Shown: one piece after another, positions 1 through 50,418 of the stretch
How positions within the stretch are numbered: the stretch's first letter is position 1
Layout of the letters: the number at the start of each line of letters is the position of its first letter
From: a virus
DNA: 64,000 bases
Strand: one strand, 5' to 3'
IMG/VR virus record: IMGVR_UViG_3300028833_000003
Position numbers and translations under genes: made by a program
The notes under the pieces: model-generated
What the model saw: the letters and a program-made list of their open reading frames with translations, nothing else
Database searches by the model: none
Told to the model about the DNA's origin: nothing

Positions 1-645
1 CAGGCAAGCTATTTACACTCAGCCAGAGATCTGGTGGCGTAAAGGCATCGTCGTAATTAGTATAAATGTTGCGTAGCAACCACGCAACCCGTCCGTGGGC
101 AGAATAGATGGGGTAAATTGAGTGTAAAAACTGGATACATGACCCAGTATAAAAAGGTGTCGCGCTTATAAGCCGCAAGTTCGCAATAGCTTATACAGTT
201 GCCCACTCTGTAAAAGGAGGCGCGCCGATAGACCGCAAGTGAAATAGTCTATTAAGGTGCCCAAATGCGGTAATTAGCGTGTAAGTTTTGAACAACTAAG
301 ACTGAGGAGCTCTGGGTCGCGCGCTATGAAGAATGGGTTAAATGGAGTTTGAGGAACAGCCAAGCGCAAACTGTATGGCTTTGTATGTGCCAGATTGCTC
401 GGCGCTTAATAAAAGAAGAGCAAAGTAAGCTCCTAGTTGCTGATAAAGTGAGTATAGTAAGGTTCTCATACTAGGATTGACCGAATCCCGCAGGTGGGAA
501 AGCACAACATCCCAGCCCGGTCAAGACAGGGTTAAGCCATCACGTGTGCCAGTGGATGCGGCGTACCGATAGGAAGTTCGGAGTAGGTCACTTTTGGAGA
601 TATTCAGAAATGCCGAATAGGCTATCCGGAAATTCTCCACTTTAT
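1..645 (+). ncRNA. Candidate large structured non-coding RNA directly upstream of the tRNA array (5' end cut by the window)
   Basis: The supplied track has no ORF of 60 aa or more here. GC is visibly above the AT-rich background. There are many hairpins, including GCAA loops. A tandem motif has compensatory stem changes. The region shares ATGCGGTAAT and GCGCGC strings with 5093-5566. Confidence 0.4.
152..263 (+). repeat. Tandem duplication of a ~52-nt RNA motif (AAAAGG-n-GCGCGC-stem-CCGCAAGT-stem-TGCCCA)
   Basis: Unit 1 is 152-205 and unit 2 is 212-263. The internal helix TATAAGC/GCTTATA (167-173/189-195) is replaced by ATAGAC/GTCTAT (228-233/247-252), so pairing is kept while the sequence differs. 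Confidence 0.6.
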
Positions 646-720
646 GCCCTGTTGGACAATCGGTAAAGTCGGCGGCCCTTCAAGCCACAGTGCCGGGTTC
701 AACTCCCGGACAGGGTACCA
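646..720 (+). tRNA. tRNA, nominal anticodon UUC (Glu-like), with non-canonical C33
   Basis: Hand-folded cloverleaf. Acceptor GCCCTGT/ACAGGGT, T arm CCGGG-TTCAACT-CCCGG, A73 and encoded CCA. The anticodon stem GCGGC/GCCAC has one C-A mismatch. The loop CCTTCAA puts TTC at positions 34-36 with C at position 33. Confidence 0.6.
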
Positions 721-768
721 CCTTTCTTAATAGCTGGTGTTTCCTTTCGTAGTGGCACATGCCACTAT

Positions 769-845
769 CTGGGTGTAGCGCAGTTTGGTAGCGTACTTGA
801 TTTGGGATCAAGGGGTCGTGGGTTCAAATCCCACCACCCAGACCA
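769..845 (+). tRNA. tRNA-Pro(TGG)
   Basis: Acceptor CTGGGTG/CACCCAG (C1-G72), D arm GCGC-AGTTTGGTA-GCGT, anticodon arm CTTGA-TTTGGGA-TCAAG, T arm GTGGG-TTCAAAT-CCCAC, A73, CCA encoded. Confidence 0.9.
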
Positions 846-1001
846 TTGCCCTTAAATGGGACGCCCTTTAAAGTTGTTTGCGGTAGTCGAATAACCTTCG
901 CTATGGCGAAGTAAAATATCCATAGCATTATATGGAACTAAATCTATCCCGAGTTCCTGCGGTTCAAGGATAGGGTTTGCGGCAACCTTAGCGCCGCGCA
1001 T

Positions 1002-1073
1002 AGGTCGGTAGTGTAATTGGTAGCACGCTAATCTCCAAAATTAGTTGTTTAGGTTCAAGTCCTAACCTTCCTG
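1002..1073 (+). tRNA. tRNA-Trp(CCA)-like, possibly a pseudogene
   Basis: D arm GTGT-AATTGGTA-GCAC, anticodon arm CTAAT-CTCCAAA-ATTAG, T arm TTAGG-TTCAAGT-CCTAA, G73. The acceptor AGGTCGG/CCTTCCT has two central mismatches and no CCA is encoded. A canonical Trp tRNA lies at 8155. Confidence 0.45.
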
Positions 1074-1078
1074 CTTAT

Positions 1079-1155
1079 GGTGCCATAGTTCAGCTGGTCA
1101 GAACGCCTGCCTGTCACGCAGGAGGTCGCGGGTTCGAACCCCGCTGGCATCGCCA
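1079..1155 (+). tRNA. tRNA-Asp(GTC)
   Basis: Acceptor GGTGCCA/TGGCATC, anticodon arm CCTGC-CTGTCAC-GCAGG, T arm GCGGG-TTCGAAC-CCCGC, G73, CCA encoded. Confidence 0.9.
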
Positions 1156-1314
1156 TTAAATGTCGGTAGGCAAGTATTAAAAGCCGAGAAGAGAATAAAG
1201 CCTATGTGATAGAACACTTTGAGGTCCAACTCAACAGGGTGTAGTAGTCCCAATTAAGAAGGATGTGCAATCTATCGAGGATGCGCGTGATTGTAACTGC
1301 ACGCCCGACAATAT

Positions 1315-1390
1315 GCCCGGTTAGCTCAGTCGGTAGAGCAGCTGGCTGTTAACCAGCGTGTCGGGGGTTCAAGTCCCTCACCGGGCGCCA
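1315..1390 (+). tRNA. tRNA-Asn(GTT)
   Basis: Acceptor GCCCGGT/ACCGGGC, D arm GCTC-AGTCGGTA-GAGC, anticodon arm GCTGG-CTGTTAA-CCAGC, G73, CCA encoded. Confidence 0.9.
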
Positions 1391-1480
1391 CCTTTCCTGA
1401 GCAAATGCGGAGATTAAACCGATGTGCGGTTAGCTGACCTTAAAGCTAATTCTTGCAAGAGTTAAAGGAGAGAAATAACA

Positions 1481-2020
1481 ATGGCTGATGCTAGATTGAA
1501 GATTTTGCCGCCTTGGACAATTGTTATCCGTAAGTTTGAAGCATTGTTCGATGGTGATCCGTAGATTGCATGTAACTGTAACTTCGGCGGTTCTGCTCCA
1601 TCAATTGTATTTGCTTGCAATAACGGTGATAAGGTAGCTGCATTGCAGAAAATTCTTCCTGAGGAAATTAACTTTGGCAATGTCAAGCTCAAAGTAAAGG
1701 TTGATGGTATTCCTTCTAATCGTGCCTTCACCAGTAAGGTTGAACTATTTGATACTGCTTTCAAGGGCAATCCTGCTTATGCTTATTCTGTTTGCCCTGC
1801 TGAGGAAGGTTATCAGTGGATTGGAACAACTTATGTTGTATTCAATAACTGCGTAGTACAGTTCCCGGCTGACAATTTGAATGACTGTCATGGTATTATC
1901 AGTACTCTTTATGAGACTATTGCTGATGAACTTCTAACTGGTCCTGCTGTTCAAGGTGTATTCTTTAATACAAACGTTGAACGCGCTAACCTCGGTAAGC
2001 CGCTGGGTGAGTGGCCGTGA
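1481..2020 (+). CDS. Hypothetical protein (one in-frame TAG at 1562)
   Basis: ATG lies 8 nt after AAGGAGAG. It is in frame with track ORF 1643..2020 across a single TAG. The gene ends in TGA. It uses the AAG/CGT/GCT-rich codon regime shared with other probably highly expressed genes here. Confidence 0.7.
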
Positions 2021-2184
2021 TAGTTGAATTAACAAATCATTGGGTTGAAATGAGCGGCCAATATGAAATTGAAGGAGTAGAAGATCATAATGATTATTTC
2101 CGCTTCTACTTCGGCAATGGTAAGTGGTCAAGAGAGTATAATACATCAATGTACTCTTATAGGATTATACAAAAATGAATTGCG

Positions 2185-2210
2185 GTAATTACTCTTCGGA
2201 GATTACCTTT
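2185..2210 (+). terminator. Hairpin with UUCG loop followed by TTTAT
   Basis: GGTAAT..CTC-TTCG-GAG-ATTACC, then TTTAT. Confidence 0.4.
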
Positions 2211-2236
2211 ATAGGGTGGATGCGTCTGCCCTGTAT

Positions 2237-2311
2237 GCCCGATTAGCTCAACGGATAGAGCACGCGGCTACGGACCGCGGGATGTGGGTTCGATTCCTAC
2301 ATCGGGTGCCA
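2237..2311 (+). tRNA. tRNA-Arg(ACG)
   Basis: Acceptor GCCCGAT/ATCGGGT, anticodon arm CGCGG-CTACGGA-CCGCG, T arm GTGGG-TTCGATT-CCTAC, G73, CCA encoded. Confidence 0.9.
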
Positions 2312-2523
2312 CTTTAATCTAATCCACTCGATATGGCTGTGACTACAAAGCGCGGAAGAGTGGCGGTAGTATAACGCCTTAATTGGCTGAAACGATAGGC
2401 CGATTAAGGATGAAATAAAGCACCAGGATGCAAGAGAGTTATACACTACGTAAAACTTTAATATAGATGTGTGTAGTCGTGCTACCGGTGGCGCGTAACA
2501 ACATAATAGGACACCGGGTACTT

Positions 2524-2601
2524 CGGGATGTAGCACAGTCGGTTTAGTGCAGCGCTCTGATAAGGCGAAGATCACTGGTTCGAGTCCAGTCATCCCGACC
2601 A
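2524..2601 (+). tRNA. tRNA-Ile(GAT)
   Basis: Acceptor CGGGATG/CATCCCG, D arm GCAC-AGTCGGTTTA-GTGC, anticodon loop CTGATAA, T arm ACTGG-TTCGAGT-CCAGT, A73, CCA encoded. Confidence 0.85.
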
Positions 2602-2608
2602 TTTTTAT

Positions 2609-2682
2609 GTGCTATTAGCGTAATGGTAGCGTTGCTGCCTTCCAAGCAGCGGGTGTCAGTTCGAATCTGATATAGCACTCCA
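2609..2682 (+). tRNA. tRNA-Gly(TCC)
   Basis: Acceptor GTGCTAT/ATAGCAC, anticodon arm GCTGC-CTTCCAA-GCAGC, T arm GTCAG-TTCGAAT-CTGAT, U73, CCA encoded. Confidence 0.9.
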
Positions 2683-2787
2683 TGGCCGCAGACACGTCAG
2701 CAAACTGACTTAAATAATTACTGCTAATGTTGCTGTATCGTAAGCACCGGGTTCGGCTCCGGGAAGATAAGCGTGTCTAGTTTTTAT

Positions 2788-2863
2788 GCTCCCTTAGTCC
2801 AACGGCAGAGACAATGCGCTTAGAACGCATCCAGTGTGGGTTCGAATCCCATGGGGAGTACCA
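2788..2863 (+). tRNA. Type-I (short variable loop) tRNA with Leu-box anticodon UAG; identity unresolved
   Basis: Acceptor GCTCCCT/GGGGAGT, anticodon arm ATGCG-CTTAGAA-CGCAT (perfect 5 bp), 5-nt variable loop CCAGT, T arm GTGGG-TTCGAAT-CCCAT, A73, CCA encoded. It is a paralogue of the tRNA at 5016-5092. Confidence 0.75.
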
Positions 2864-2867
2864 ATAT

Positions 2868-2957
2868 GCGCTCGTGGCTGAGAGGTCGAAAGCGGTGCCC
2901 TGCTAAGGCATTGACTCTTTCCCGGGTCCGAAGGTTCGAATCCTTCCGAGCGCGCCA
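2868..2957 (+). tRNA. tRNA-Ser(GCT)
   Basis: Type II tRNA. Acceptor GCGCTCG/CGAGCGC, anticodon arm GTGCC-CTGCTAA-GGCAT, long variable arm, T arm GAAGG-TTCGAAT-CCTTC, G73, CCA encoded. Confidence 0.9.
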
Positions 2958-3027
2958 TTTTAAATTAATTCATCTATCTAAATCTTCATTATAAAATAGA
3001 ATCTCAATATTTCAAAGGGGGATTACT

Positions 3028-3828
3028 ATGTATAATGGATACAAAGAAATTCGTGGGACCACTGACGAAATTAATGAGCTAATGTTTCAAATGGATCCTG
3101 CGGATTGGGCAATCAATGAATATCTTATTATTCACAACACAGATGAAAATCGCACAACTGAAATGCGTTGGACTGGTTCGTAGTTTGTTGCATTAAAATT
3201 ACCGCCATCTTCATATGTAAAAGCACTCAATAGTGAGCAAAGATGTTTGTTGGATTTGCTTAATAATAAAAACATTACTGTTGTTGCTGCACTTGGAACT
3301 TATGGTTCTGGTAAAACTTATTTAGCTTTACAAATGGCACTTTACGGTTTAAAAGAAAAAGGATGGTATGATAAAATCCTTGGTGTGCGCGAAGTCATTG
3401 GTGAAGGTCGAGATATTGGTTTTTTGCCAGGTGAGTAGAAAGCTAAAACAGATAATTTCTTTAAACCGTTAGAACAATAGCTAAATGGTGGAGAGTTTGA
3501 ATTAGATAGCTTAGTGCGGCAAGGGCAATTAGAAACATAGATTCCTTATTTTTTAAAAGGCTGTACTTATAATCAGACTGCGATTGTCGTTGATGAAGCC
3601 GAGGACTTAACTGAAAAACAAATTAAGTTAATTGGTACTCGCGCTGGAAAAGGCAGTCGTGTTATTTTTGCCGGTGACTATAAACAATCATTAGTAAATC
3701 ACACTGAGTCCAATCCACTTGTTAAAATGTGTGATGCATTGCGCGGTAACCCTCTGTTTGGATGCGTAGTATTAAAAGAGGATGTCCGTAGCGAAACTTC
3801 TAAATTATTTGCTGACCTCTTCACTTGA
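3028..3828 (+). CDS. phoH: PhoH-like ATPase (four in-frame TAGs: 3181, 3436, 3478, 3538)
   Basis: Walker A GTYGSGKTY, the GFLPG motif and Walker B VVDEAED lie in one frame only if TAG is read through. ATG follows GGGGGA. The gene ends in TGA at 3826. Confidence 0.85.
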
Positions 3829-3853
3829 AAATTTTAAAAATTTTTGATATAAT
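3825..3853 (+). promoter_or_regulatory. Sigma70-like promoter cassette (TTGAAA-N17-TGaTATAAT)
   Basis: -35 at 3825-3830 and -10 at 3848-3853 with a TG extension. It is followed by the conserved ATATATAGAAAGTGAG leader. Confidence 0.75.
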
Positions 3854-3884
3854 ATATATAGAAAGTGAGAGGGAGGTAAGCCTT

Positions 3885-4052
3885 ATGACCTATGCTGAGT
3901 GTCCTTGGTATGATTGCTACGAATTGTGCGACGGTTGTCCTGAACGAATTGCTTGTAATGAGTATAGAGACTATGTTGATAATGGCGTATGTGAATTTGA
4001 GCATCGTGAGTATGGCGAAGAAGGCTATCCCGACATGGAAGAAGACGATTAA
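3885..4052 (+). CDS. Small Cys-rich acidic protein
   Basis: ATG lies 9 nt after GAGGGAGG, downstream of the promoter. MTYAECPWYDCYELCDGCPERIACNEY... The gene ends in TAA. Confidence 0.55.
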   Translation: MTYAECPWYDCYELCDGCPERIACNEYRDYVDNGVCEFEHREYGEEGYPDMEEDD

Positions 4053-4073
4053 AATCACAGGAGGAAGAGAGCC

Positions 4074-4373
4074 ATGAGCGATACTAAAAACACCTGTTCG
4101 CAGGATTGTTCTAAGACTTGTAAAAATTATTAGCCAGTTACTCCGTAGAAAGATAATTATGGATGGATTTGCGCGAAGTGTGGTCGTGGCATTGCGCCAA
4201 ATCAAATAACTTGTCCTTATTGCGGACCTACTTATACTTGGATTAGTACATCACCTTGGTGGAGCGGTCCATATTATACAACTACTAATGTTTCTAACAC
4301 TATTGATAAAGATAGTGTAACAGCAAGTGCGTCAAATATCACATTAAATGCTAATGCTACTACGCTAACTTGA
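4074..4373 (+). CDS. Zinc-ribbon protein (two in-frame TAGs: 4131, 4146)
   Basis: ATG follows GGAGGAAGAGAG. CAKCG...CPYCG ribbon. The frame is open to TGA at 4371 only if TAG is sense. Confidence 0.55.
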
Positions 4374-4398
4374 AAATTTTAAAAAAATTTGATATAAT
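4370..4398 (+). promoter_or_regulatory. Promoter cassette (TTGAAA-N17-TGaTATAAT)
   Basis: -35 at 4370-4375 and -10 at 4393-4398. Class B leader ATATATGTAAGATAAAGAAAAGGAG. Confidence 0.75.
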
Positions 4399-4430
4399 AT
4401 ATATGTAAGATAAAGAAAAGGAGAAATTAA

Positions 4431-4646
4431 ATGTATTATTACCTTGTAGATTTTCTTGATGAGGATTATAACGAGCATAAAGAATCTGGCCTAATTGGTG
4501 CTCAGTCTTATAGCACTGCTACTGCACAGGTTACTGATTTCTACGGTGAAGGTAATATTATTTCTCTTTATCTTGAACAGTGGAATGATGTTGTAACCGA
4601 GGATGAAGTTCTCGATGGCTTTGAAGAAGCCGATGTGAGGGTTTAA
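4431..4646 (+). CDS. Hypothetical acidic protein
   Basis: Track ORF. ATG lies 8 nt after AAGGAG. TAA stop sits inside a hairpin at 4635-4654. Confidence 0.6.
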   Translation: MYYYLVDFLDEDYNEHKESGLIGAQSYSTATAQVTDFYGEGNIISLYLEQWNDVVTEDEVLDGFEEADVRV

Positions 4647-4658
4647 TCCCTCACTTAT

Positions 4659-4742
4659 GCGGGTATGGTGGAATGGCAGACACCACAGACTTAAAATCTG
4701 TTGCCGCAAGGCGTGCCGGTTCAAGTCCGGCTACCCGCACCA
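4659..4742 (+). tRNA. tRNA-Leu(TAA)
   Basis: Type II tRNA. Acceptor GCGGGTA/TACCCGC, anticodon arm ACAGA-CTTAAAA-TCTGT, variable arm GCC-GCAA-GGC, A73, CCA encoded. Confidence 0.9.
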
Positions 4743-4814
4743 TTAAGGCTCACACAGCAAATTTTAATGCAATAGTATTGGTAAACTATAAGTGCAGGCG
4801 AGCCTTGTTTTTAT

Positions 4815-4896
4815 GCCCGAGTGGCGGAATGGCAGACGCGCTTGACTCAAAATCAAGTTCGAGAGAGTGTGGGTTCAAGTCCCACCTTGGGCACCA
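4815..4896 (+). tRNA. tRNA-Leu(CAA)
   Basis: Type II tRNA. Acceptor GCCCGAG/CTTGGGC, anticodon arm CTTGA-CTCAAAA-TCAAG, long variable arm, A73, CCA encoded. Confidence 0.9.
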
Positions 4897-5015
4897 GATT
4901 GTTGTCCGGCCGGCAACCCAGTGGATGGATTGTTACGCATCCCGTGCTACTACTGCGAGAGGGATCACGCTTAGGCTTTGCATGCGCACCACGGCCCATG
5001 AAGGTAGCACACTAT

Positions 5016-5092
5016 GCTCCCTTAGCCCAATTGGCAGAGGCAGTTGGCTAAGAACCAACACAGTGAGAGTTCGAATCTCTTGGGGAGTACCA
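5016..5092 (+). tRNA. Type-I tRNA with Leu-box anticodon AAG; identity unresolved
   Basis: Same acceptor GCTCCCT/GGGGAGT and A73-CCA as the tRNA at 2788. Anticodon arm GTTGG-CTAAGAA-CCAAC, 5-nt variable loop ACAGT, T arm GAGAG-TTCGAAT-CTCTT. Confidence 0.75.
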
Positions 5093-5566
5093 CCAGGGCA
5101 TGCCTGGTTTATATTGTCTAGCAACAAGGCAATCACACTGCAATGTTGTATGTAGGTAAATGATGGGGAGGAGTTAAAGGCGTCCTCTCTCTGGGGCAAT
5201 GCGGTAATACCTGCGCGCGGGTAGCAAAGTTACCCTACCAGTAGTTAGAAGTCTGTAAAACTTCCATTGGGCTGGCTGAGAGGCCCTGGTCCATCTTCCT
5301 TGCCAACAGTGATAGTCCTGTTTAAGGCAAAAAACATGCGGGTTAGCTAAACGCGATGATGGCTAGTTTTAGGGTTTTACGCCACGCTTTTAAGGACTTT
5401 GGCATTGATAAGCAAATTTGCTTGTCTATACTAGTTAATGCCGCAGTTCTAATTTGTCTGCACACTCGATTGGTAGTGTCCCACAAAAAAACTTGTTGAA
5501 GAGTGAAGTTGGTGGTTTTAGCTCTTAAAAAATATCTTATATGCGCTAAGATAAGGGCGCTTAATA
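5093..5566 (+). ncRNA. Candidate structured non-coding RNA (~470 nt) between the tRNA array and the next gene
   Basis: No credible ORF on either strand even with TAG read through. The track ORFs here run through tRNAs. The region is GC-enriched and hairpin-rich. It begins with CCAGG-GCATG-CCTGG. It shares ATGCGGTAAT and GCGCGC strings with 1-645. Confidence 0.4.
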
Positions 5567-5587
5567 GTGAAGGAGAGGAACTTAACT

Positions 5588-5902
5588 ATGAAATTTTTTT
5601 CTGAGGTAACGAATAGGGTTTATGATTCTGTTGATGCACTTAACGCCGCCGAAAAAAAGGTAGCCGATGAGAAGCGTGCTCGTGAGGAAGCCGAAGCTAA
5701 GAAAAAGGAAACTCGTGAAGCCCGCGCAAAGGAAGTTGAAGCTGCCCTTGAACTTGCTTCCAAGACTCGCTCAGATGCTTTGGAGAAGTTGAATGCTTTT
5801 GTGAAGGACTATGGTGCCTTCCATACTTCCATCAAGAATGTTGATTCACTGTTTGGATCAGAGCATGCATTGAGTACCCTGTTTGATCTGTTCAACTATT
5901 GA
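5588..5902 (+). CDS. Lys/Glu/Ala-rich coiled-coil protein
   Basis: ATG lies 9 nt after GAAGGAGAGG and is internal to track ORF 5567. It uses the AAG-rich codon regime. TGA stop, then a terminator. Confidence 0.6.
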   Translation: MKFFSEVTNRVYDSVDALNAAEKKVADEKRAREEAEAKKKETREARAKEVEAALELASKTRSDALEKLNAFVKDYGAFHTSIKNVDSLFGSEHALSTLFDLFNY

Positions 5903-5914
5903 TTAGATGCCTCT

Positions 5915-5939
5915 GGCGGCAGGCAAAAAGCCGCCTTTA
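5915..5939 (+). terminator. Rho-independent terminator-like hairpin
   Basis: GGCGGC-AGGCAAAAA-GCCGCC followed by TTTAT. Confidence 0.5.
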
Positions 5940-5942
5940 TAT

Positions 5943-6018
5943 GGGGATGTAGCTCAGTTGGTAGAGCGCCTGCCTTGCAAGCAGGAGGTAGAGGGTTCGA
6001 TCCCCTTCATCTCCACCA
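5943..6018 (+). tRNA. tRNA-Ala(TGC)
   Basis: Acceptor GGGGATG/CATCTCC with G3-U70, anticodon arm CCTGC-CTTGCAA-GCAGG, A73, CCA encoded. Confidence 0.9.
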
Positions 6019-6019
6019 G

Positions 6020-6136
6020 AAGACCTGTCAGCAATTATCTTTTTGCATTAGGAGCACGGGGTTCCAGGTTCGAATCCTGGGTCGGGGATTATTCCCCGGC
6101 TAGCTCAACTGGTAGAGCACGTTATTAGCGGGTCTT
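6020..6136 (+). ncRNA. Circularly permuted tRNA-like module (YrlA/Y-RNA-like candidate 1)
   Basis: Order of elements: closing helix AAGACC (6020-6025) with GGTCTT (6131-6136); T arm CCAGG-TTCGAAT-CCTGG (6064-6080); capped acceptor helix GTCGGGG (6081-6087), loop ATTATT, CCCCGGC (6094-6100); TA; D arm GCTC-AACTGGTA-GAGC (6103-6118). Confidence 0.5.
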
Positions 6137-6170
6137 GTATTTTAAAAGTATCAAAAGGAGAGGTTACACT

Positions 6171-6593
6171 ATGAGGAAAGTAATTAGTTTAATAATGGTG
6201 ATGCTTATGTTATTCTTGCCATTAACAAGTTAGGCATCTTGTGCATCCCCATCTGTCGAATCTTTGGTTTCATTTACACCTAAAATTAGCTGGCAATACG
6301 CCACAGAAGATAGTTTGTTTAGCAAATTTTATCCTGAGTGGGTAGATACATTCTTATTCAGGTCTGAGTGGAAAATTATAGACGCATTTGAAATTAGTCT
6401 GCAAGCACCGCATCGTCTTGTTACTATGTATTGGGCGGTAATGCCAGAGAATGTAAAAGATTTCGGTGTCTTGTTTGTGGGTAATAACCAGTTCATCTTG
6501 CGCTCTGCGTTTGTATATGATGAAACCCATCTTATGATTAATTTCACAAATGTATTACCTGGCGATTATCTTATGGTAATAGTTGCGCGATAA
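6171..6593 (+). CDS. Secreted protein with N-terminal signal peptide (one in-frame TAG at 6231)
   Basis: ATG lies 9 nt after AGGAGAGG. MRKVISLIMVMLMLFLPLTS-TAG-ASCASPS... It is in frame with track ORF 6264..6593 and ends in TAA. Confidence 0.6.
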
Positions 6594-6608
6594 TTTTCGC
6601 GCATAAAT

Positions 6609-6682
6609 GCGGCTATAGTATAGTGGTAATACGCGGCCTTGCCAAGGCTGAATCACGGGTTCAAATCCCGTTAGCCGCTCCA
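6609..6682 (+). tRNA. tRNA-Gly(GCC)
   Basis: Acceptor GCGGCTA/TAGCCGC, anticodon arm CGGCC-TTGCCAA-GGCTG, T arm ACGGG-TTCAAAT-CCCGT, U73, CCA encoded. Confidence 0.9.
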
Positions 6683-6686
6683 TTCA

Positions 6687-6719
6687 ATAGACCTGTTCAT
6701 ACAACAGGTCTATATTTTA
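6687..6719 (+). terminator. Strong hairpin followed by a T-run, inside the tRNA array
   Basis: ATAGACCTGTT-CATAC-AACAGGTCTAT, then ATTTTAT. Confidence 0.6.
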
Positions 6720-6720
6720 T

Positions 6721-6796
6721 GCGCGTGTAGCTCAGTCGGTAGAGCACGTGACTTTTAATCACGGCGTCGGGAGTTCGATCCTCCCCACGCGCACCA
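6721..6796 (+). tRNA. tRNA-Lys(TTT)
   Basis: Acceptor GCGCGTG/CACGCGC, anticodon arm CGTGA-CTTTTAA-TCACG, T arm GGGAG-TTCGATC-CTCCC, A73, CCA encoded. Confidence 0.9.
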
Positions 6797-6799
6797 TAT

Positions 6800-6874
6800 G
6801 GCTTGGTAGCTGAGACGGATTAGCAGCGGACTGAAAATCCGCATAGGTTGGATCGTTACCAACCCAAGCCACCA
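6800..6874 (+). tRNA. tRNA-Phe(GAA) with an unusual T loop (A54/U58)
   Basis: Acceptor GGCTTGG/CCAAGCC, anticodon arm GCGGA-CTGAAAA-TCCGC, T arm GTTGG-ATCGTTA-CCAAC, A73, CCA encoded. Confidence 0.85.
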
Positions 6875-6967
6875 GGGAGTCGGGAAGCTGTGTCATTAGT
6901 ATCACGTGCTACGGTGACAATGCAGTGAAACAATTGCGCATAATACCGAATAGAGACACTCCCACCA
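6875..6967 (+). ncRNA. Structured spacer RNA closed by an acceptor-like helix and ending in ACCA
   Basis: GGGAGT (6875-6880) pairs with ACTCCC (6958-6963), followed by ACCA (6964-6967). Internal hairpins are TGTCA...TGACA and GCAGT-GAAACA-ATTGC. No D or T arm consensus is present. Confidence 0.35.
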
Positions 6968-6995
6968 TTTTAAATAATCAATAGGAGGCCATTCT

Positions 6996-7205
6996 ATGAG
7001 TTTTAAAGACGCCTATAAAGCCATGCGTGAAGGTAAAGCTATTTCTAATACTGAGCATCCTGATGATCAGTGGGTTTGGAAGAATGACTAGATGATTTTC
7101 CAAAGTGGTGATGGCATTAGCTATCCGGTTAATGATATGCTATCTATTGAATATCTCCTCGATTAGATTGTACAAGATATTTGGTTTGTTGTAGAAGAAG
7201 AATAA
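6996..7205 (+). CDS. Small DUF2829-like protein (two in-frame TAGs: 7089, 7164)
   Basis: ATG lies 8 nt after AGGAGG. MSFKDAYKAMREGKAI...W...DIWFVV recalls the DUF2829 pattern (F..A...m..GK...W ... D.W). The family assignment is from memory only. Confidence 0.5.
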
Positions 7206-7217
7206 ACTTCTTCTTAT

Positions 7218-7292
7218 GTGGAGTGTCGTCTAATGGTAAGACAGCAGATTGTGGCTCTGCGAACGCAGGTTCGATTCCTGTCATTCCACCCA
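7218..7292 (+). tRNA. tRNA-His(GTG)
   Basis: G-1 opposite C73, acceptor TGGAGTG/CATTCCA, anticodon arm GCAGA-TTGTGGC-TCTGC, CCA encoded. Confidence 0.9.
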
Positions 7293-7365
7293 GCTAGCGG
7301 TGAGGGCAATTGACGAATGGGGCTAGCGGAATCCGCACGCGACGTCGGTAAAAAAGCTCCTATAT

Positions 7366-7440
7366 GCGCTGAACCCTCGTCGGTCGGGGAGAGGTCTGCA
7401 AAACCTCTGTTAGTGGGTTCAACTCCCACTCAGCGCTCCA
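7366..7440 (+). tRNA. tRNA-Cys(GCA)
   Basis: Acceptor GCGCTGA/TCAGCGC, anticodon arm GAGGT-CTGCAAA-ACCTC, T arm GTGGG-TTCAACT-CCCAC, U73, CCA encoded. Confidence 0.9.
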
Positions 7441-7456
7441 ATTAAAGAGGGGAGCG

Positions 7457-8140
7457 ATGCATATGTTATTAAGAAAAGGAATGCGTGGAGAATCGGTTCG
7501 ATAGTTACAAACACGTTTAACTGAATTAGGTTTCCTCAATAGTAAGATTGATGGAGTATTTGGTCCAGTAACTTAGAACGCAGTTATGAATTTTCAAATG
7601 CAAGCAAATTTAGGAGTTGATGGTATTGTTGGTCCAAAAACAGAAGCAGCATTAAATGATGTGAATGCGCCGCATTATGTTATACCAACTTCAACTGCGG
7701 TTCCTGCTACTGGCACTGCGCAAATGATGGATTGGTGGAAAAGTGATATTTCTAAAATCTTTGCGCGTGGTGTAGTGGCAACTATTACAGATGTAGATAC
7801 TGGCTTAGCTTGGCACGAAGTACGTAAAGGCGGCTCTAACCACGCTGACGTTCAACCATGTACTGCCGCAGATACTGCTGTATTGAAATAGGCTTATGGT
7901 GGAAAATGGTCATGGGCTAGACGCGCAATTTTTGTAACGATCAATGGTGTTAATTATGCCGCATCAATGAATGGGATGCCACACAGCGGACAATCTATTT
8001 TAGATAATAATTTCCCTGGACATCATTGTATCCACTTTACTAATAGCCGCACACATAATACAAATAAAGTGTGTCCAGACCATCGTAAAGCTATTGAAAA
8101 AGCAGCAAAAGCAAATTTAGGTGATAATTCGGTGGGTTAA
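7457..8140 (+). CDS. Peptidoglycan-binding (PG_binding_1-like) protein with an uncharacterised C-terminal domain (three in-frame TAGs: 7502, 7574, 7889)
   Basis: G..V.-TAG-LQ..L..LGF....DG.FG..T-TAG-.AV..FQ....L..DG.VG..T matches the PG_binding_1 repeat pattern. The frame is open from ATG 7457 to TAA 8138 only if TAG is sense. Confidence 0.75.
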
Positions 8141-8153
8141 TTAACCCACTTTA
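8132..8153 (+). terminator. Palindromic hairpin overlapping the stop codon
   Basis: GTGGGTTAA/TTAACCCAC followed by TTTAT. Confidence 0.45.
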
Positions 8154-8154
8154 T

Positions 8155-8229
8155 AGGGGAATGGTGTAATTGGCAGCATGTCGGTCTCCAAAACCGCTGG
8201 TCTAGGTTCGAGTCCTAGTTCCCCTGCCA
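8155..8229 (+). tRNA. tRNA-Trp(CCA)
   Basis: Acceptor AGGGGAA/TTCCCCT, anticodon loop CTCCAAA, T arm CTAGG-TTCGAGT-CCTAG, G73, CCA encoded. Confidence 0.9.
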
Positions 8230-8233
8230 TTAT

Positions 8234-8308
8234 GCGGGTATAGTTCAACGGATAGAATAACAGACTTCTAATCTGTACATCAGGGTTCAATTCCCTGTAC
8301 CCGTACCA
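8234..8308 (+). tRNA. tRNA-Arg(TCT)
   Basis: Acceptor GCGGGTA/TACCCGT, anticodon arm ACAGA-CTTCTAA-TCTGT, T arm CAGGG-TTCAATT-CCCTG, A73, CCA encoded. Confidence 0.9.
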
Positions 8309-8309
8309 G

Positions 8310-8338
8310 TTGATTTTTTTAAAAATTTTTGATATAAT
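8310..8338 (+). promoter_or_regulatory. Promoter cassette (TTGATT-N17-TGaTATAAT)
   Basis: -35 at 8310-8315 and -10 at 8333-8338. Class B leader ATATATGTAAGATAAAGAAAGG. Confidence 0.75.
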
Positions 8339-8375
8339 ATATATGTAAGATAAAGAAAGGAAGGGCAAACAGTAA

Positions 8376-8714
8376 ATGAAAATTACTCTGTTTGTGGATG
8401 ATGAACGCAGACCTCACAGAGAAGATGCGCATAGTTGGATACTTGTTAGAACTGGTAAGCTTGCAATTGATTTACTTGATGCTCTTCGTAAAATTAATTC
8501 TAAGAATGTTTTTGATATATATCTTGACCATGACCTTGGCTCTGGCATAAGCGGTTATGATGTAGCAAAATATATTGTAGATAACAATATCACAGAAGTG
8601 CAACATGTATATGTAATAAGTATGAATCCAGTTGGTGCGCAGAATATTTGTGATTTGCTTAATCATTACGGTTGGTCGGCAAAGCGAGTGGGGCTAGATG
8701 TTATTGGATTATAA
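8376..8714 (+). CDS. Receiver-like domain protein resembling the cyclic-phosphate-processing REC (cREC) domain of RNA-repair systems
   Basis: MKITLFVDDERRP...WILVRT...AIDLL......IYLDHDLG...SGYDVAKYIV......VYVISMNPVG..NI matches the remembered cREC pattern. No TAG. It runs directly into the suppressor tRNA. Confidence 0.55.
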   Translation: MKITLFVDDERRPHREDAHSWILVRTGKLAIDLLDALRKINSKNVFDIYLDHDLGSGISGYDVAKYIVDNNITEVQHVYVISMNPVGAQNICDLLNHYGWSAKRVGLDVIGL

Positions 8715-8807
8715 AGCCCCTTAGTTCAACGGTAGAACACCGGTCTCTAAAACCGTTATATCCCTCTGAAGGAGGTAGTCTGGGTTCGAATCCCAGAGGG
8801 GCCGCCA
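8715..8807 (+). tRNA. Amber-suppressor tRNA, anticodon CUA, with a long (23-nt) variable region
   Basis: Acceptor AGCCCCT/AGGGGCC (A1-C72 mismatch, then 6 bp), U8, D arm GTTC-AACGGTA-GAAC, anticodon stem CGGT/ACCG with loop CTCTAAA, variable region 8757-8779 with a CCTC/GAGG stem, T arm CTGGG-TTCGAAT-CCCAG, G73, CCA encoded. Confidence 0.8.
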
Positions 8808-8811
8808 ATCA

Positions 8812-8921
8812 TCGACACGTACAGCAAATATAAAGAGTAATCTTTATGTCATGGGTTCAACTCCCATCCTGCACACAGTGCATGTAGCTTAGTTGGTAGA
8901 GCGAAAGAATATAAGTGTCGA
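8812..8921 (+). ncRNA. Circularly permuted tRNA-like module (YrlA/Y-RNA-like candidate 2)
   Basis: Order of elements: closing helix TCGACAC (8812-8818) with GTGTCGA (8915-8921); hairpin ATAAAGA-GTAA-TCTTTAT; T arm ATGGG-TTCAACT-CCCAT (8851-8867); capped acceptor CCTGCAC (8868-8874), loop ACA, GTGCATG (8878-8884); TA; D arm GCTT-AGTTGGTA-GAGC (8887-8902). AAAGA (8904-8908) is complementary to TCTTT (8841-8845). Confidence 0.55.
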
Positions 8922-8932
8922 GTAAATTTTTA

Positions 8933-9025
8933 TAGACAGCATACTGCAATGAAATATTGGATAATATAACAGTTTTTATGCAACTATTATTAGAAGGTTC
9001 AAGTCCTTCGCTTATGCGCTGTCTA
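8933..9025 (+). ncRNA. Second structured module: bulged closing helix plus an orphan T arm
   Basis: TAGACAGCATA (8933-8943) pairs with TATGC-GC-GCTGTCTA (9013-9025) with a 2-nt bulge. T arm GAAGG-TTCAAGT-CCTTC lies at 8993-9009. There is an internal ATAATA/TATTAT hairpin. No D arm or anticodon arm is present. Confidence 0.4.
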
Positions 9026-9123
9026 GAATTTTATTAGGACATAATTAATCAACGCATTGTCCTTAAAATTGAATAAATATTAGGGTGTACATACCTAAAA
9101 TTTCCATGGAAAGGACGATGCTT

Positions 9124-9579
9124 ATGGCAGCTACAATTTTATTTACCAAGCCTGAAACTCAAGAGCTTGCTAATATATACCAAGAGTATGCGTTGCAAAA
9201 TGCTGAATTGGTAGCTAAGAAAGAACTTGCGTTGATTGGCATAGCCATTAACAATGCTGCGGCGAAAGGCGCCACTAGCATTAATTACAAGGCTTCAAAA
9301 GACTTTACTACTTTACAGGGTACTTATTATAATAAGGCTGTAGAGATTATGAACGCAGATTTCCAAAATGCTGGTTATTCTGCTGAAGCAACCACTGACC
9401 GCAATGGTTATGCAATTGCATTCTCTTTTGATTGGTCTGTAATTGATGGCGATGTTCCTGGTGGTAATACTAATCCATCTGCACCAGCAGCAGAGGAAAA
9501 TTGGGAAGAAATTCCTGATCCAGCCCCAGCAGACCCAGCAGAAGGAGAGCCAACCGAAACTCCAACAGATGGCGAGTAA
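9124..9579 (+). CDS. Hypothetical protein with a Pro/Glu/Ala-rich acidic tail
   Basis: Track ORF 9085..9579. In-frame ATGs lie at 9106, 9118 and 9124, and 9124 has the best spacing from GGAAAGGA. TAA stop. Confidence 0.55.
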   Translation: MAATILFTKPETQELANIYQEYALQNAELVAKKELALIGIAINNAAAKGATSINYKASKDFTTLQGTYYNKAVEIMNADFQNAGYSAEATTDRNGYAIAFSFDWSVIDGDVPGGNTNPSAPAAEENWEEIPDPAPADPAEGEPTETPTDGE

Positions 9580-9686
9580 TTGATTGATTAATGATAGGCT
9601 CCAACAGCAAGACAAGAAACACATTCATTTTTAACAAGAAAACGATAGGTGCTATAGGGAGCCTAGATTTTTATGAGGTATAAATA

Positions 9687-9839
9687 ATGATAACAGTAAG
9701 TTAGATTTTTGTTTTTCTTTTAATGTTTGATGCAGCCTGGGTATTCTATGGACTGCTACATAAAAAAAATATGTGGAAATGGATTTGTCTTTATTGGATA
9801 CTCCTCACATTAAAAAATGCAAGTGATCTAATTTTTTGA
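9687..9839 (+). CDS. Small single-pass membrane protein (one in-frame TAG at 9702)
   Basis: ATG lies 8 nt after GAGG. MITVS-TAG-IFVFLLMFDAAWVFYGLLHKKNMWKW... Ends in TGA at 9837. Confidence 0.35.
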
Positions 9840-9852
9840 GGAGATGAAAAAG

Positions 9853-10098
9853 ATGTATTCAAGAGCACACATTAGATGTAATGGCCCACAGGAAACTGCG
9901 CAATTAGTAAGTTTATTAAATACTGATGGTACAACCAATAAGTATATCTTAGAAACGGCAGATAGTGCTTATCGTGTAAATGCAAGAAGTTTCTTAGGTG
10001 CGGTATATTTTACTACTGAGCATGCTGATGATACTTGGTTAGTAAATACTGATAATGATGGTTGGTATCCTATTGGTATTGATAACTTCCGTATCTAA
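9853..10098 (+). CDS. Hypothetical protein (weak HPr-like resemblance, catalytic His absent)
   Basis: Track ORF 9844..10098. The second ATG (9853) lies 9 nt after GAGGAG. ...RVNARSFLGAVYF recalls the HPr ...KS.mg.m.L segment. Confidence 0.55.
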   Translation: MYSRAHIRCNGPQETAQLVSLLNTDGTTNKYILETADSAYRVNARSFLGAVYFTTEHADDTWLVNTDNDGWYPIGIDNFRI

Positions 10099-10121
10099 TT
10101 GGGACAAAATAGTCCCCATAA

Positions 10122-10198
10122 TGGGGTGTAGCCAAGTTGGCCAAGGCATGGGACTTTGACTCCCACATTCGCAGGTTCGAGTCCTGCCACCCCAGCCA
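10122..10198 (+). tRNA. tRNA-Gln(TTG)
   Basis: Acceptor TGGGGTG/CACCCCA (U1-A72), anticodon arm TGGGA-CTTTGAC-TCCCA, T arm GCAGG-TTCGAGT-CCTGC, G73, CCA encoded. Confidence 0.9.
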
Positions 10199-10202
10199 AT
10201 AT

Positions 10203-10277
10203 GCCGTCGTGGCTCAATGGTAGAGCAGCTGATTTGTAATCAGCAGGTTGTAGGTTCGACTCCTATCGGCGGCTCCA
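10203..10277 (+). tRNA. tRNA-Thr(TGT)
   Basis: Acceptor GCCGTCG/CGGCGGC, anticodon arm GCTGA-TTTGTAA-TCAGC, T arm GTAGG-TTCGACT-CCTAT, U73, CCA encoded. Confidence 0.85.
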
Positions 10278-10541
10278 AGAGAGCATACTCTTAACCAATG
10301 TCGATTGCAGGTGGTATCGTTAAATCCACCCCAGGCGGACCAGAGGATAATGCAGACGTGCAAAAATGCCCCAAACCCAGTGCGGTTTGTCAGTCGTCAC
10401 AATCGGGACAAGCTGGTCTAAAGATGGAAAGCCGGCTCATTACAGCAATGTTAGCCAGAGTAGTATAAAAGGCAAGTACAGCGCAGATGACAATGCGAAG
10501 ATTTCGGTTCGACTCCGAACTAAAAATCCATCTTGAAATAT
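10278..10541 (+). ncRNA. Candidate structured non-coding RNA (~260 nt) between tRNA-Thr and tRNA-Ser
   Basis: No ORF. Helices: AAGAG/CTCTT, GGTGG-TATCGTTAAAT-CCACC, GACCAG (10339-10344) with CTGGTC (10413-10418), TTGTC/GACAA, AGATGGA (10422-10428) with TCCATCT (10526-10532), and a T-arm-like TTCGG-TTCGACT-CCGAA. Confidence 0.4.
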
Positions 10542-10630
10542 GGGCGTGTGGCCGAGAGGCTGAAGGCTATGGTCCTGAAAACCATCGTGGTGATGAGCCA
10601 CCGTAGGTTCGAATCCTACCGCGCTCGCCA
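10542..10630 (+). tRNA. tRNA-Ser(TGA) with non-canonical C33
   Basis: Type II tRNA. Acceptor GGGCGTG/CGCGCTC, anticodon arm ATGGT-CCTGAAA-ACCAT (perfect stem; the loop has C at position 33), long variable arm, T arm GTAGG-TTCGAAT-CCTAC, G73, CCA encoded. Confidence 0.8.
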
Positions 10631-10634
10631 GTAT

Positions 10635-10667
10635 AAAGACTACAATAAGTAGTCTTTTATTTTTTTA
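10635..10667 (+). terminator. Rho-independent terminator ending the tRNA array
   Basis: AAAGACTAC-AATAA-GTAGTCTTT followed by TATTTTTTT. Confidence 0.8.
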
Positions 10668-10696
10668 CAAATATAATGACCGAGGAGGATTTTAAT

Positions 10697-11338
10697 ATGA
10701 AAGTTCAACATGCTGTTGGTAATGCTGCCGCAATTGCAGCACTTCCTGTTACCCCAGGTAAAATTTATTTTTCTAAAGACACCAAAAAGATTTTCTTTGA
10801 TACTGCTGATGGTCGTATTGAAATCAACAGTGATGTAGTCGCACAAGTAGCTAATTTACTTGCTGCAGTAAATGTTTTAAATGGCGATGCTAATGTAGCA
10901 GGCTCAGTTGCTAATGTTGCAAATGCCGCTGCCGCACGTAAGGTCGCTGAAATTGTTGGCGATGCTGATGAAAATTTAGATACTCTTGAAGAAATCGCTA
11001 CTTGGATTAGTTCTGATGAAGGCGGAAAAGCTGCTGCCGCATTAGCTAGTCGCGTAGAGACTGTTGAAAATACTTTACAGGGCATGAGTGATCATGGTTC
11101 TCGTATTAGTGGTTTAGAGTCCTCAATGCAATTAGTTGTTACTAATAGCCAGTTGGCTAATTATGCTTTAAAAACTGATTTGAATGATTTAGTAACAAAT
11201 ACCGCATTGACCACTGCTCTTGCTGATTATGTACAAAATGCAGCTTTAGCTACCTATGCTACCAAAGCTGCACTTGATGCTTTGGATACTCGTGTTACTG
11301 CTCTTGAAACCGCTAATGATGAAGGTGCTGGTGCTTAA
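10697..11338 (+). CDS. Ala-rich coiled-coil fibre-like protein
   Basis: ATG lies 7 nt after GAGGAGGA and is internal to track ORF 10676. Heptad-like Ala/Leu/Asn-rich repeats. TAA overlaps the next ATG (TAATG). Confidence 0.6.
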   Translation: MKVQHAVGNAAAIAALPVTPGKIYFSKDTKKIFFDTADGRIEINSDVVAQVANLLAAVNVLNGDANVAGSVANVANAAAARKVAEIVGDADENLDTLEEIATWISSDEGGKAAAALASRVETVENTLQGMSDHGSRISGLESSMQLVVTNSQLANYALKTDLNDLVTNTALTTALADYVQNAALATYATKAALDALDTRVTALETANDEGAGA

Positions 11339-12480: not shown

Positions 12481-12481
12481 A

Positions 12482-12515
12482 TTAAGCCCCTCATTTGAGG
12501 GGCTTAATTTTTTTT
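12482..12515 (+). terminator. Rho-independent terminator
   Basis: TTAAGCCCCTCA-TT-TGAGGGGCTTAA followed by T8. Confidence 0.9.
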
Positions 12516-12542
12516 GCCTTTTTTATTTTTTTATGTTATAAT
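12514..12542 (+). promoter_or_regulatory. Promoter (TTGCCT-N17-TGtTATAAT)
   Basis: -10 at 12537-12542 with a TG extension. The -35 is weaker than in the other cassettes. Confidence 0.55.
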
Positions 12543-12574
12543 ATAAATGAAAAATAAAAAGGAGGTTAATTTAT

Positions 12575-12961
12575 ATGAAACGCCTTATTACTCTTTTTTT
12601 GACATTATGTTTATTTATATATCCACTCGCGGCATATGCGACAGAAGTAGAATCATAGACTGTAAATTTAGATGGCGTAGAACTAATTATTCCAGAACCT
12701 GACCCATGTCTTACCAGTGTTCGTATTGATTGGAAGATGGGACGTCCAAGCGTAGTAGAAGAAAATACTCCTCTTACTTTAACGAGTACATTAGAGGGTA
12801 TTAGAATTGATGAATTAGTTTTATCATATCAATGGTATTATGACAAACATGATGGTCAAGGTTTTGTTCCAATTTCGGGCGCAAATTCTAAATCATATAG
12901 TTTCCCAGCAACCGCCGCAACTTTAAGTTATGATTATAAATTAATTGTTACTTATCAATAA
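12575..12961 (+). CDS. Secreted protein with signal peptide (one in-frame TAG at 12656)
   Basis: ATG lies 9 nt after AAGGAGG. MKRLITLFLTLCLFIYPLAAYA... It is in frame with track ORF 12737 and ends in TAA. Confidence 0.6.
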
Positions 12962-12965
12962 ATAA

Positions 12966-13015: not shown

Positions 13016-13046
13016 ATATATAGAAAATCAATAGGAGGTTCTATAT

Positions 13047-49885: not shown

Positions 49886-49889
49886 GAAC

Positions 49890-50389: not shown

Positions 50390-50418
50390 GTACATAGAAA
50401 ATATAAGGAGCTAATAGC

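Follow-up and report, generated by a model that had tools for sequence, protein, structure and literature searches.

Two short-arm tRNA genes in the tRNA array of an uncultured rumen phage very probably encode working leucine tRNAs and belong to a family, carried by phages, from which the long variable arm has been lost. The genes carry the anticodons UAG and AAG and lie in IMG/VR virus record IMGVR_UViG_3300028833_000003, of which a stretch of 64,000 nucleotides (hereafter the window) was analysed. They are new members of a widespread family of short-arm phage tRNA-Leu, which already carries annotation but seems to have drawn little discussion. A preliminary description of the window had left three explanations side by side: unusual type-I leucine acceptors covering the CUN codons, tRNAs charged with another amino acid, and decoys. 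The first is supported here by the anticodons of the family, the discriminator base A73, the leucine-type D arm and codon tests. The underlying sequence observation was right in every detail, the more exotic interpretations are not supported, and what is left is a modest general point for tRNA biology.

Structure of the two short-arm genes

The two genes, hereafter tRNA(UAG) and tRNA(AAG), are listed in Table 1 with the other features of the window. Both are 76-77 nt long according to ARAGORN, and in a search of the whole 64-kb window they score 49.2 bits (E = 1.6e-7) and 48.0 bits (E = 3.7e-7), respectively, against the Rfam tRNA model RF00005, whose gathering score is 29. In the RF00005 alignment the 7-nt anticodon loops are CUUAGAA in tRNA(UAG) and CUAAGAA in tRNA(AAG), each on a perfect 5-bp stem (AUGCG/CGCAU and GUUGG/CCAAC), and the anticodons occupy the positions at which the preliminary description had read them. 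The variable regions, CCAGU and ACAGU, are 5 nt long and end in G-U (U48); neither contains a long arm, that is, a stem-loop of more than 10 nt. Common to both genes are the acceptor stem GCUCCCU/GGGGAGU with the wobble pairs G1.U72 and U7.G66, A73, an encoded CCA and the T loop UUCGAAU. They are identical in 63 of 78 aligned columns (81%), and it was fair to call them paralogous.

The D arms read UA GUCC AACGGCAGA GAC A in the gene at 2788 and UA GCCC AAUUGGCAGA GGC A in the gene at 5016, with a stem of 3 bp, a C13.A22 mismatch and the loop AAC/AAUU-GGCAGA. The long-arm genes of the same array have GUGG AAUGGCAGA CAC in tRNA-Leu(UAA) and GCGG AAUGGCAGA CGC in tRNA-Leu(CAA). The short tRNAs and the long-arm leucine tRNAs of the window thus share one D-arm architecture (3-bp stem, 13.22 mismatch, loop AAY(U)GGCAGA). 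The ARAGORN calls and the RF00005 alignment bear out what had been claimed of both genes, namely their positions, the common acceptor, A73-CCA, the similar D arms, the 5-bp anticodon stems with their loops and the 5-nt variable loops. They also confirm the normal long-arm tRNA-Leu(UAA) at 4659 and tRNA-Leu(CAA) at 4815.

A short-arm leucine tRNA family in viral metagenomes

The D-arm string alone matched more than 119 contigs in IMG/VR. The 80 loci that were returned contained 74 tRNAs with this string, all of 73-76 nt, and 72 of them had leucine anticodons. For a wider set we used all fetched loci and a pattern that fixed only the D arm (U8 A9, G10-Y-C-C, loop AAY(U)GGYAGA, G-R-C, A26) and the T loop and required base pairing; 105 distinct tRNAs were obtained, and both window genes conform to the pattern. 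Their anticodons are UAA (67), UAG (22), CAA (9), GAG (3), CAG (2) and AAG (2), all of them leucine anticodons and from both leucine boxes. A tRNA body on which the anticodons of both leucine boxes, and none besides, are found must be that of a leucine tRNA. A73 is present in every member and the 5-nt variable region in 104 of the 105, CCAGU and ACAGU being its two commonest forms (22 and 20 members). The first pair is G.U in 64 members, as in both window genes, and G-C in 35. The acceptor stems are of 66 kinds and the anticodon stems of 52 kinds, all paired; the cloverleaf also emerges from RNAalifold, and compensatory double changes occur in 17 of its 21 helix pairs.

The D loop also separates leucine tRNAs from the rest when the arm is disregarded. 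A relaxed D-loop motif occurred in 117 of 131 short and 16 of 26 long tRNAs with leucine anticodons in the fetched data, and in none of 47 long Ser tRNAs, none of 14 long Tyr tRNAs and about 5% of the other tRNAs. This distribution makes the motif a leucine signature that is independent of the arm. The anticodon AAG is a minority within the family. A search aimed at AAG gave 36 IMG/VR contigs, among which were at least 11 further well-formed short-arm members, eight of them with the loop CUAAGAA.

A second case of arm loss was observed among loci found through the PhoH gene of the array (L003-L008). L007 has a 77-nt tRNA(AAG) between tRNA-Arg(ACG) and tRNA-Val(UAC), whereas the same slot in the sister contigs L003-L006 and L008 is held by an 86-nt type-II tRNA-Leu(GAG). 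L007 agrees with L004 and L008 throughout its acceptor stem (GUGCGUG/CAUGCAC), D loop and T arm and in A73, and departs from them in the D stem, anticodon stem-loop and variable region alone. D loop, T arm and A73 are likewise unchanged in the other sister contigs, whose acceptor stems are the same or nearly so; L003 has two further differences from L007, in the 5' acceptor strand. L007 is an independent instance of the long-to-short switch.

Other unusual tRNAs were seen in these loci. L001 (5346-5421) and L002 (9182-9257) have a 76-nt short-arm tRNA with A73, to which ARAGORN assigns the Ser-box anticodon AGA with an uncertain stem register; it adjoins short-arm Leu(UAG) and Leu(UAA) genes. 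Two 88-nt tRNAs with Thr(UGU)/Lys(UUU) anticodons have long variable inserts on type-I bodies (L003 18802-18889, L007 16484-16571). Variable arms seem to have been gained as well as lost in this phage group.

Relatives in cultured phages

The family is also present in cultured phages. Annotated tRNA-Leu genes of Pseudomonas phages of the genus Otagovirus share 82-86% full-length identity with the window tRNA(UAG), which matches 66 records, Lactobacillus and Bacillus phages among them. The window tRNA(AAG) has matches in 291 cultured-phage records (Mycobacterium 82, Escherichia 41, Salmonella 32, Vibrio 30, Erwinia 28 and others), with 76-81% full-length identity to tRNA-Leu of Vequintavirinae and of Pseudomonas, Gordonia and Mycobacterium phages. 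Among 30 tRNA(AAG) matches listed, 29 are annotated as tRNA-Leu and the remaining record has no annotation. A family member with the anticodon UAA matched 205 records. Short arms together with leucine anticodons were verified in Enterobacter phage F1M1E, Pseudomonas phage PPSC2, Mycobacterium phage BeanWater and Citrobacter phage Moogle. The tRNA-Leu/tRNA-Gln segment of Moogle, used as a 261-nt query, matched 253 records, mostly of coliphages and Salmonella and Shigella phages, Felixounavirus included. Bacteriophage T5 was considered as a biochemically characterised member and was rejected because its tRNA-Leu(UAG) is an ordinary 85-nt type-II tRNA.

In Shigella phage Sf14 all three leucine tRNAs are short (77, 78 and 79 nt), its Ser and Tyr tRNAs are long-armed, and its UAG tRNA has the loop CUUAGAA of the window tRNA(UAG). 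Scoring with tRNAscan-SE isotype models had been proposed as a check in the preliminary description. Published scores cover these close family members rather than the window genes: under tRNAscan-SE 2.0, Leu is the top isotype for all three Sf14 tRNAs (67.4, 49.1 and 60.2) (PMC12482277). The premise that bacterial tRNA-Leu is type II, from which the preliminary description set out, holds for cells. It does not extend to phage-encoded tRNA-Leu, in which short arms are common; those of the listed GenBank records that are annotated name such genes tRNA-Leu. In a full-text literature search no explicit description of a short-arm phage tRNA-Leu was found, and an earlier one may exist elsewhere.

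CUA and CUU codons specify leucine

The same preliminary description had suggested a codon-to-residue inference for CUA and CUU. The GyrB, GyrA, DnaE, NrdD and permease (UraA) proteins of the window were aligned to their Escherichia coli K-12 orthologues, which are an independent reference in the standard code. CTA and CTT sites face an E. coli leucine in 30 of 75 cases (40%) and the other four leucine codons in 94 of 213 (44%); for TTA and TTG together the count is 79 of 186 (Fisher p = 0.78 against CTA/CTT). Any other amino acid accounts for at most 9% of the CTA/CTT sites, whereas the codons of those amino acids match themselves at 14-59%. In a likelihood calculation over all 20 amino acids, trained on the remaining codons, leucine was the maximum-likelihood amino acid for CTA and for CTT, with Met the runner-up by 5.3 and 3.1 nats.

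In GyrB of 119 related phages leucine is the majority residue at 16 of the 17 CTA/CTT sites of the window gene (5 CTA, 12 CTT). At the exception, site 632, Ile leads and Leu is second, and the minor residues at the 17 sites are mostly I, V, M or F. These proteins are conceptual translations, and the comparison was therefore repeated at codon level in ten related contigs. There the window CTT sites face TTA/TTG 66 times, CTT 40 times, other CTN codons 18 times and Ile codons 25 times, and the window CTA sites face TTA/TTG 12 times, other CTN codons 15 times and CTA five times. Met is excluded by this exchange with UUR codons. Free exchange with codons that are read by the canonical long-arm tRNAs is the behaviour of synonymous leucine codons. 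Whatever decodes CUA and CUU in this phage inserts leucine.

Charging and decoding

Leucine identity in E. coli depends on A73, A15-U48, G18G19, A20a and tertiary contacts of the D loop with the T loop, and leucylation needs neither the long arm nor the anticodon; constructs without both arms are still leucylated, and C2-G71 acts against seryl-tRNA synthetase (SerRS) (PMC9976931). The E. coli-type set is readable in both short genes (A73, U8-A14, A15-U48, G18G19, A20a and an intact T loop), and both carry C2-G71. Since the window tRNAs hold all the elements used by the E. coli leucyl-tRNA synthetase (LeuRS), we infer by analogy with this biochemistry that the host LeuRS would charge both with leucine. 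Arm loss would be tolerated only in leucine tRNAs because SerRS and bacterial tyrosyl-tRNA synthetase (TyrRS) need the arm and LeuRS does not. The ratios of short to long tRNAs in the fetched data (Leu 131/26, Ser 1/47, Tyr 1/14) fit an arm that vanishes only where the synthetase can spare it.

ARAGORN found no CUN-reading tRNA in the window besides these two. tRNA(UAG) reads CUA and CUG, and possibly all CUN codons, and tRNA(AAG) reads CUU by Watson-Crick pairing. If a host TadA deaminated A34 to inosine, tRNA(AAG) might also read CUC and CUA. Its loop shares C32, U33, A34 and G36 with that of tRNA-Arg(ACG) and differs at positions 35 and 37. The earlier statement that A34 is normally limited to tRNA-Arg(ACG) in bacteria has a documented exception in the tRNA-Leu(AAG) genes of Bacilli, which are exclusive with GAG, are converted to I34 by TadA in streptococci and go with a raised usage of CUU and CUC (PMC13249217). 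Among the proteins of the window that were scanned, no synthetase and no TadA-like deaminase was found.

CUN codons make up 36% of the 1226 leucine codons (CTT 209, CTA 90, CTG 80, CTC 61), and CUU is the commonest of them; the CUN share is 42% in TAG-free genes and 27% in TAG-containing genes. The two short-arm and the two long-arm (UUR) tRNAs would give the phage its own complete leucine decoder set within a near-complete array, which might sustain translation when host tRNAs are depleted or cleaved.

Expression and strain variation

Metatranscriptome contigs from three ruminant runs cover 4966-5300, including tRNA(AAG), at a word depth of 85-132, against 5-14 at the PhoH open reading frame (ORF). 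This depth is compatible with high RNA levels but is not proof of them. The region 5165-5295 (+), just 3' of tRNA(AAG), also has high depth in these contigs and matches the Rfam cow-rumen-3 RNA (RF03083) below threshold, at 42 bits (E = 1.9e-7) where the gathering score is 86.7. The two promoter-like elements of Table 1 are near-identical copies, cTTGAAAattttaaaaa(a)tttGATATAATatatat, and show sharp depth spikes in all sequencing runs; the repeat is probably present many times in this and related phages.

Alternative explanations

Several points count against the assignment of the two genes as functional leucine tRNAs. Leucylation of the window tRNAs is supported indirectly, via the codon-to-residue inference, and the likelihood margin over Met in that E. 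coli-based calculation is small (3.1-5.3 nats). The UAG species of Sf14 favours Leu narrowly (67.4 against 65.7 for Ile2) (PMC12482277). LeuRS enzymes differ in their need for the long arm, which the archaeal one of Haloferax requires (PMC9976931); the host of the window phage is probably a member of the Bacillota, as judged only from the labels of metagenome-assembled genomes (MAGs) that hold related contigs. The expression figure is an assembler word depth of metatranscriptome contigs that possibly include DNA. Finally, a strain of roughly 97% identity, represented by one contig from a bovine-rumen RNA run, joins 2784 to 2867 and lacks exactly the tRNA(UAG) gene (2785-2866). The gene is thus a gain/loss cassette among strains and is dispensable at least in some backgrounds.

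The strongest competitor, itself improbable, is that the genes encode decoys or sponges, tRNA-like molecules that absorb or distract host nucleases or toxins directed at tRNA, or that have another non-translational role. An RNA-repair-like gene set in the window (RlaP, an RNA-ligase-like protein, a P-loop kinase, a phosphoesterase and cREC_REC) points to a conflict in which tRNAs are cleaved, a known role of phage tRNAs is to counteract defences that cleave tRNA (PMC10264068, PMC11555353), and the strain without tRNA(UAG) also agrees with such a role. However, a decoy has no need of A73, CCA, an intact leucine-type core and strictly leucine anticodons over 105 diverse members, with four helices kept through compensatory changes and none but the six leucine anticodons in use. 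The two genes fill exactly the CUN gap of an otherwise near-complete decoding set, in a phage in which 27-42% of the leucine codons are CUN, and the known counter-defence tRNAs of phages stay functional in translation and are not inert.

Partial charging by another synthetase, for instance the A35-reading isoleucyl-, valyl- or methionyl-tRNA synthetases (IleRS, ValRS, MetRS), is a shade less probable still. It would cause statistical mistranslation of CUN codons, whether deliberate or tolerated. The isotype scores of the Sf14 UAG tRNA are close to one another (Leu 67.4, Ile2 65.7, Lys 63.4; PMC12482277), and G1.U72 is not among the known leucine elements. On the other hand, the conserved features are those of leucine identity (A73, A15-U48 and G18G19 in a leucine-type D loop), the nucleotides that IleRS, ValRS and MetRS need at position 36 are missing from the anticodons UAG, AAG and UAA (PMC9976931), and substitutions at CTA/CTT sites are no different from those at other leucine codons.

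Reassignment of CUA and/or CUU, with the two tRNAs carrying another amino acid, could be entertained because the phage is already off the standard code (in-frame TAG in many genes, a tRNA(CUA)) and both tRNAs lack the hallmark arm of cellular tRNA-Leu, but it is barely credible and is contradicted by the leucine alignment rate and the exchange with TTA/TTG described above, by the fall of leucine from 7.8% to 5.9% of codons that the removal of CTA and CTT would entail, and by the occurrence of UAA and CAA on the same tRNA body in other phages, which is inexplicable by a non-leucine identity.

Possible reasons for arm loss

The leucine-tRNA assignment leaves room for the arm loss to have been adaptive and not neutral, which we offer as a doubtful, joint speculation. 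A tRNA-Leu without the arm and marked by G1.U72 might both escape host defence nucleases or toxins that act by recognising or cutting the long variable arms of type-II tRNAs and be portable between distant hosts. Portability would follow because an arm-less tRNA-Leu cannot be mistaken for tRNA-Ser or tRNA-Tyr, and spread would be possible because LeuRS alone of the three type-II synthetases ignores the arm. Retron-Eco7 and Septu attack E. coli tRNA-Tyr by cleaving its long variable arm, and the tRNA-Tyr of T5 escapes through a different variable loop (PMC13096335, PMC11555353); changes in the loop also let phage tRNAs escape anticodon nucleases (PMC10264068). The window phage has what would be expected of a lineage under such pressure: a near-complete array, RNA-repair-like genes, and relatives that lose (Leu) and gain (suppressor, Thr, Lys) variable arms. 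Bacterial Schlafen nucleases were considered as an arm-specific threat and set aside, since the enzyme that has been published cleaves several tRNAs in the anticodon arm and is not specific to type-II arms (PMC13056530).

The tRNA array and the phage

The window has 25 tRNA genes between 646 and 10630 (ARAGORN). tRNA-Trp(CCA) occurs twice, at 1002-1074 and 8155-8229 (+), and the window has no tRNA for Met, Val or Tyr; the array may extend upstream of the window start. A megablast of the array against cultured phages gave scattered tRNA matches and no close genome.

Table 1. Features of the window that bear on the short-arm tRNA genes.
Feature	Position	Strand	Basis
Short-arm (type-I) tRNA-Leu, anticodon UAG	2788..2863	+	ARAGORN; Rfam RF00005
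Short-arm (type-I) tRNA-Leu, anticodon AAG	5016..5092	+	ARAGORN; Rfam RF00005
Canonical long-arm (type-II) tRNA-Leu(UAA), 84 nt	4659..4742	+	ARAGORN; Rfam alignment
Canonical long-arm (type-II) tRNA-Leu(CAA), 82 nt	4815..4896	+	ARAGORN; Rfam alignment
tRNA-Arg(ACG), the other A34 tRNA of the array, canonical TadA substrate, loop CUACGGA	2237..2311	+	ARAGORN
Suppressor tRNA(CUA)	8715-8807	+	ARAGORN
Promoter-like TTGAAA-17-TATAAT with extended -10 TG; a small ORF and three tRNA genes (4659-5092) lie downstream	4370..4398	+	11/12 consensus positions; consensus match only
Promoter-like TTGAAA-17-TATAAT with TG extension, second copy	3825..3853	+	Consensus match only
Terminator-like hairpin, then T-rich tail (5 T in 8 bases); starts at the CCA of tRNA(AAG)	5092..5108	+	Consensus match only
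RNA-repair-like gene set near the tRNA array	8376-8714, 14987-16519, 16795-17598, 18609-20012, 22211-23390		

The phage is uncultured and of roughly 169 kb (the longest GyrB-bearing contig is 168,960 bp), and was found in metagenomes from the guts of sheep, goats and bovines. GyrB, GyrA, an ATP-dependent ligase, DnaB and DnaE are encoded in the window. Primase-, RecJ-, RecD-, NrdD- and uracil-permease-like proteins were recognised from sequence, and two of these align to E. coli NrdD and UraA. A GyrB alignment scan of genome contigs gave four phage-like contigs only, which are binned in Bacillota MAGs; the bins of same-clade contigs are labelled Bacillota, Clostridium, Lachnospiraceae and 'Mollicutes'. 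The TAG-free gene 10676-11338, tried as an anchor for tRNA arrays of the same clade, had no relatives in IMG/VR. Its homologues are distant and lie in non-syntenic loci, one of which, L146, has a short tRNA-Leu(UAA) with G1.U72.

In-frame TAG codons occur in many genes, 64 of them in the larger genes. They are confined to some genes (1-14884 and 47648-63756, as against 14987-47000), with four in PhoH and 15 in a tail-fibre-like gene of 1986 amino acids (57796-63756, minus strand). In 14987-47000, TAG is limited to two of the ORFs of 150 codons or more (17779-18435, one; 32830-33837, three), and every replication gene is free of it. The tRNA(CUA) appears Gln-like, with G73, a weak A1.C72 top pair, G2-C71, G10 and the anticodon stem CCGGU/ACCGU, and has a 23-nt insert in its variable region, the opposite of the arm-less leucine tRNAs. 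Two of four TAG sites in PhoH face Gln codons in six related contigs, and a TAG site faces Q in E. coli UraA; the remaining sites face K, F, R, D and T, and Gln is one candidate for the amino acid at TAG.

The RNA-repair-like set comprises cREC_REC (a cyclic-phosphate processing receiver), a protein with DUF2828 and DUF7788, an RlaP nucleotidyltransferase, an RNA-ligase-like protein, an AAA_33 P-loop kinase and a metallophosphoesterase. A DUF2828 protein also lies beside the tRNA array in Sf14 and adjoins tRNA genes in L146. The gene 14987-16519 (+) differs from the rest of the phage in its leucine codons (CTG 23, TTA 2), which suggests recent acquisition.

Significance

The textbook rule that bacterial-type tRNA-Leu is always long-armed fails for phage-encoded tRNA-Leu. 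A single short-arm family with leucine anticodons only extends across phages of Proteobacteria, Actinobacteria and Bacillota, and provides natural in vivo support for the older in vitro finding that bacterial LeuRS can do without the arm. For the window phage a suspected sense-codon reassignment is removed, and its proteins can be translated with CUN as leucine, TAG apart. These tRNAs may also be of use as a compact, host-portable leucine tRNA scaffold.

Comparison with known systems

The nearest known counterparts are the short tRNA-Leu (74-79 nt) of cultured phages: Ounavirinae (Felix O1-like phages, Moogle, Sf14), Otagovirus (phiPsa374, PPSC2), Vequintavirinae (CR3, F1M1E), Mycobacterium phages of Bixzunavirus (cluster C), and Streptomyces, Gordonia, Lactobacillus and Bacillus phages. 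They share with the window genes the D arm UAGYCC-AAY(U)GGYAGA-GRC, A26, a 5-nt variable region ending in GU, A73, usually G1.U72, and leucine anticodons, at a full-length identity of 76-86%. The window genes differ in belonging to an uncultured, TAG-recoded rumen phage and in lying beside two long-arm tRNA-Leu genes. Canonical type-II tRNA-Leu, both of E. coli and at 4659 and 4815 of the window, has A73, the 3-bp D stem with the 13.22 mismatch, the D loop AAU(U)GGYAGA and A15-U48 like the short pair, but an arm of 12-15 nt and G1-C72 in place of 5 nt and G1.U72.

The type-I tRNA-Leu of animal mitochondria is also arm-less and is recognised through A73 and A14 (PMC9976931). It is of an unrelated lineage with a dedicated mitochondrial LeuRS and a degenerate core, whereas the phage tRNAs have fully canonical D and T loops. 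The yeast mitochondrial tRNA-Thr(UAG) and the tRNA-Ser/Ala(CAG) of the CUG clade resemble the window genes in combining an unusual body with a CUN-box anticodon; there the codons align to the new amino acid, and here to leucine.

The tRNA-Leu(AAG)/I34 of Lactobacillales likewise has A34 in a bacterial-type tRNA-Leu, its exclusivity with GAG is mirrored by L007 and its sister contigs, and it goes with raised CUU/CUC use; CUU is the commonest CUN codon in the window. It is, however, a type-II tRNA, while the window tRNA(AAG) is short-armed and its deamination is hypothetical. The tRNA-Tyr of T5 is likewise a phage version of a type-II tRNA with a variable region unlike that of the host (PMC13096335, PMC11555353). 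In T5 the arm is altered and not removed and resistance was shown by experiment, whereas a link between short-arm tRNA-Leu and nucleases is hypothetical.

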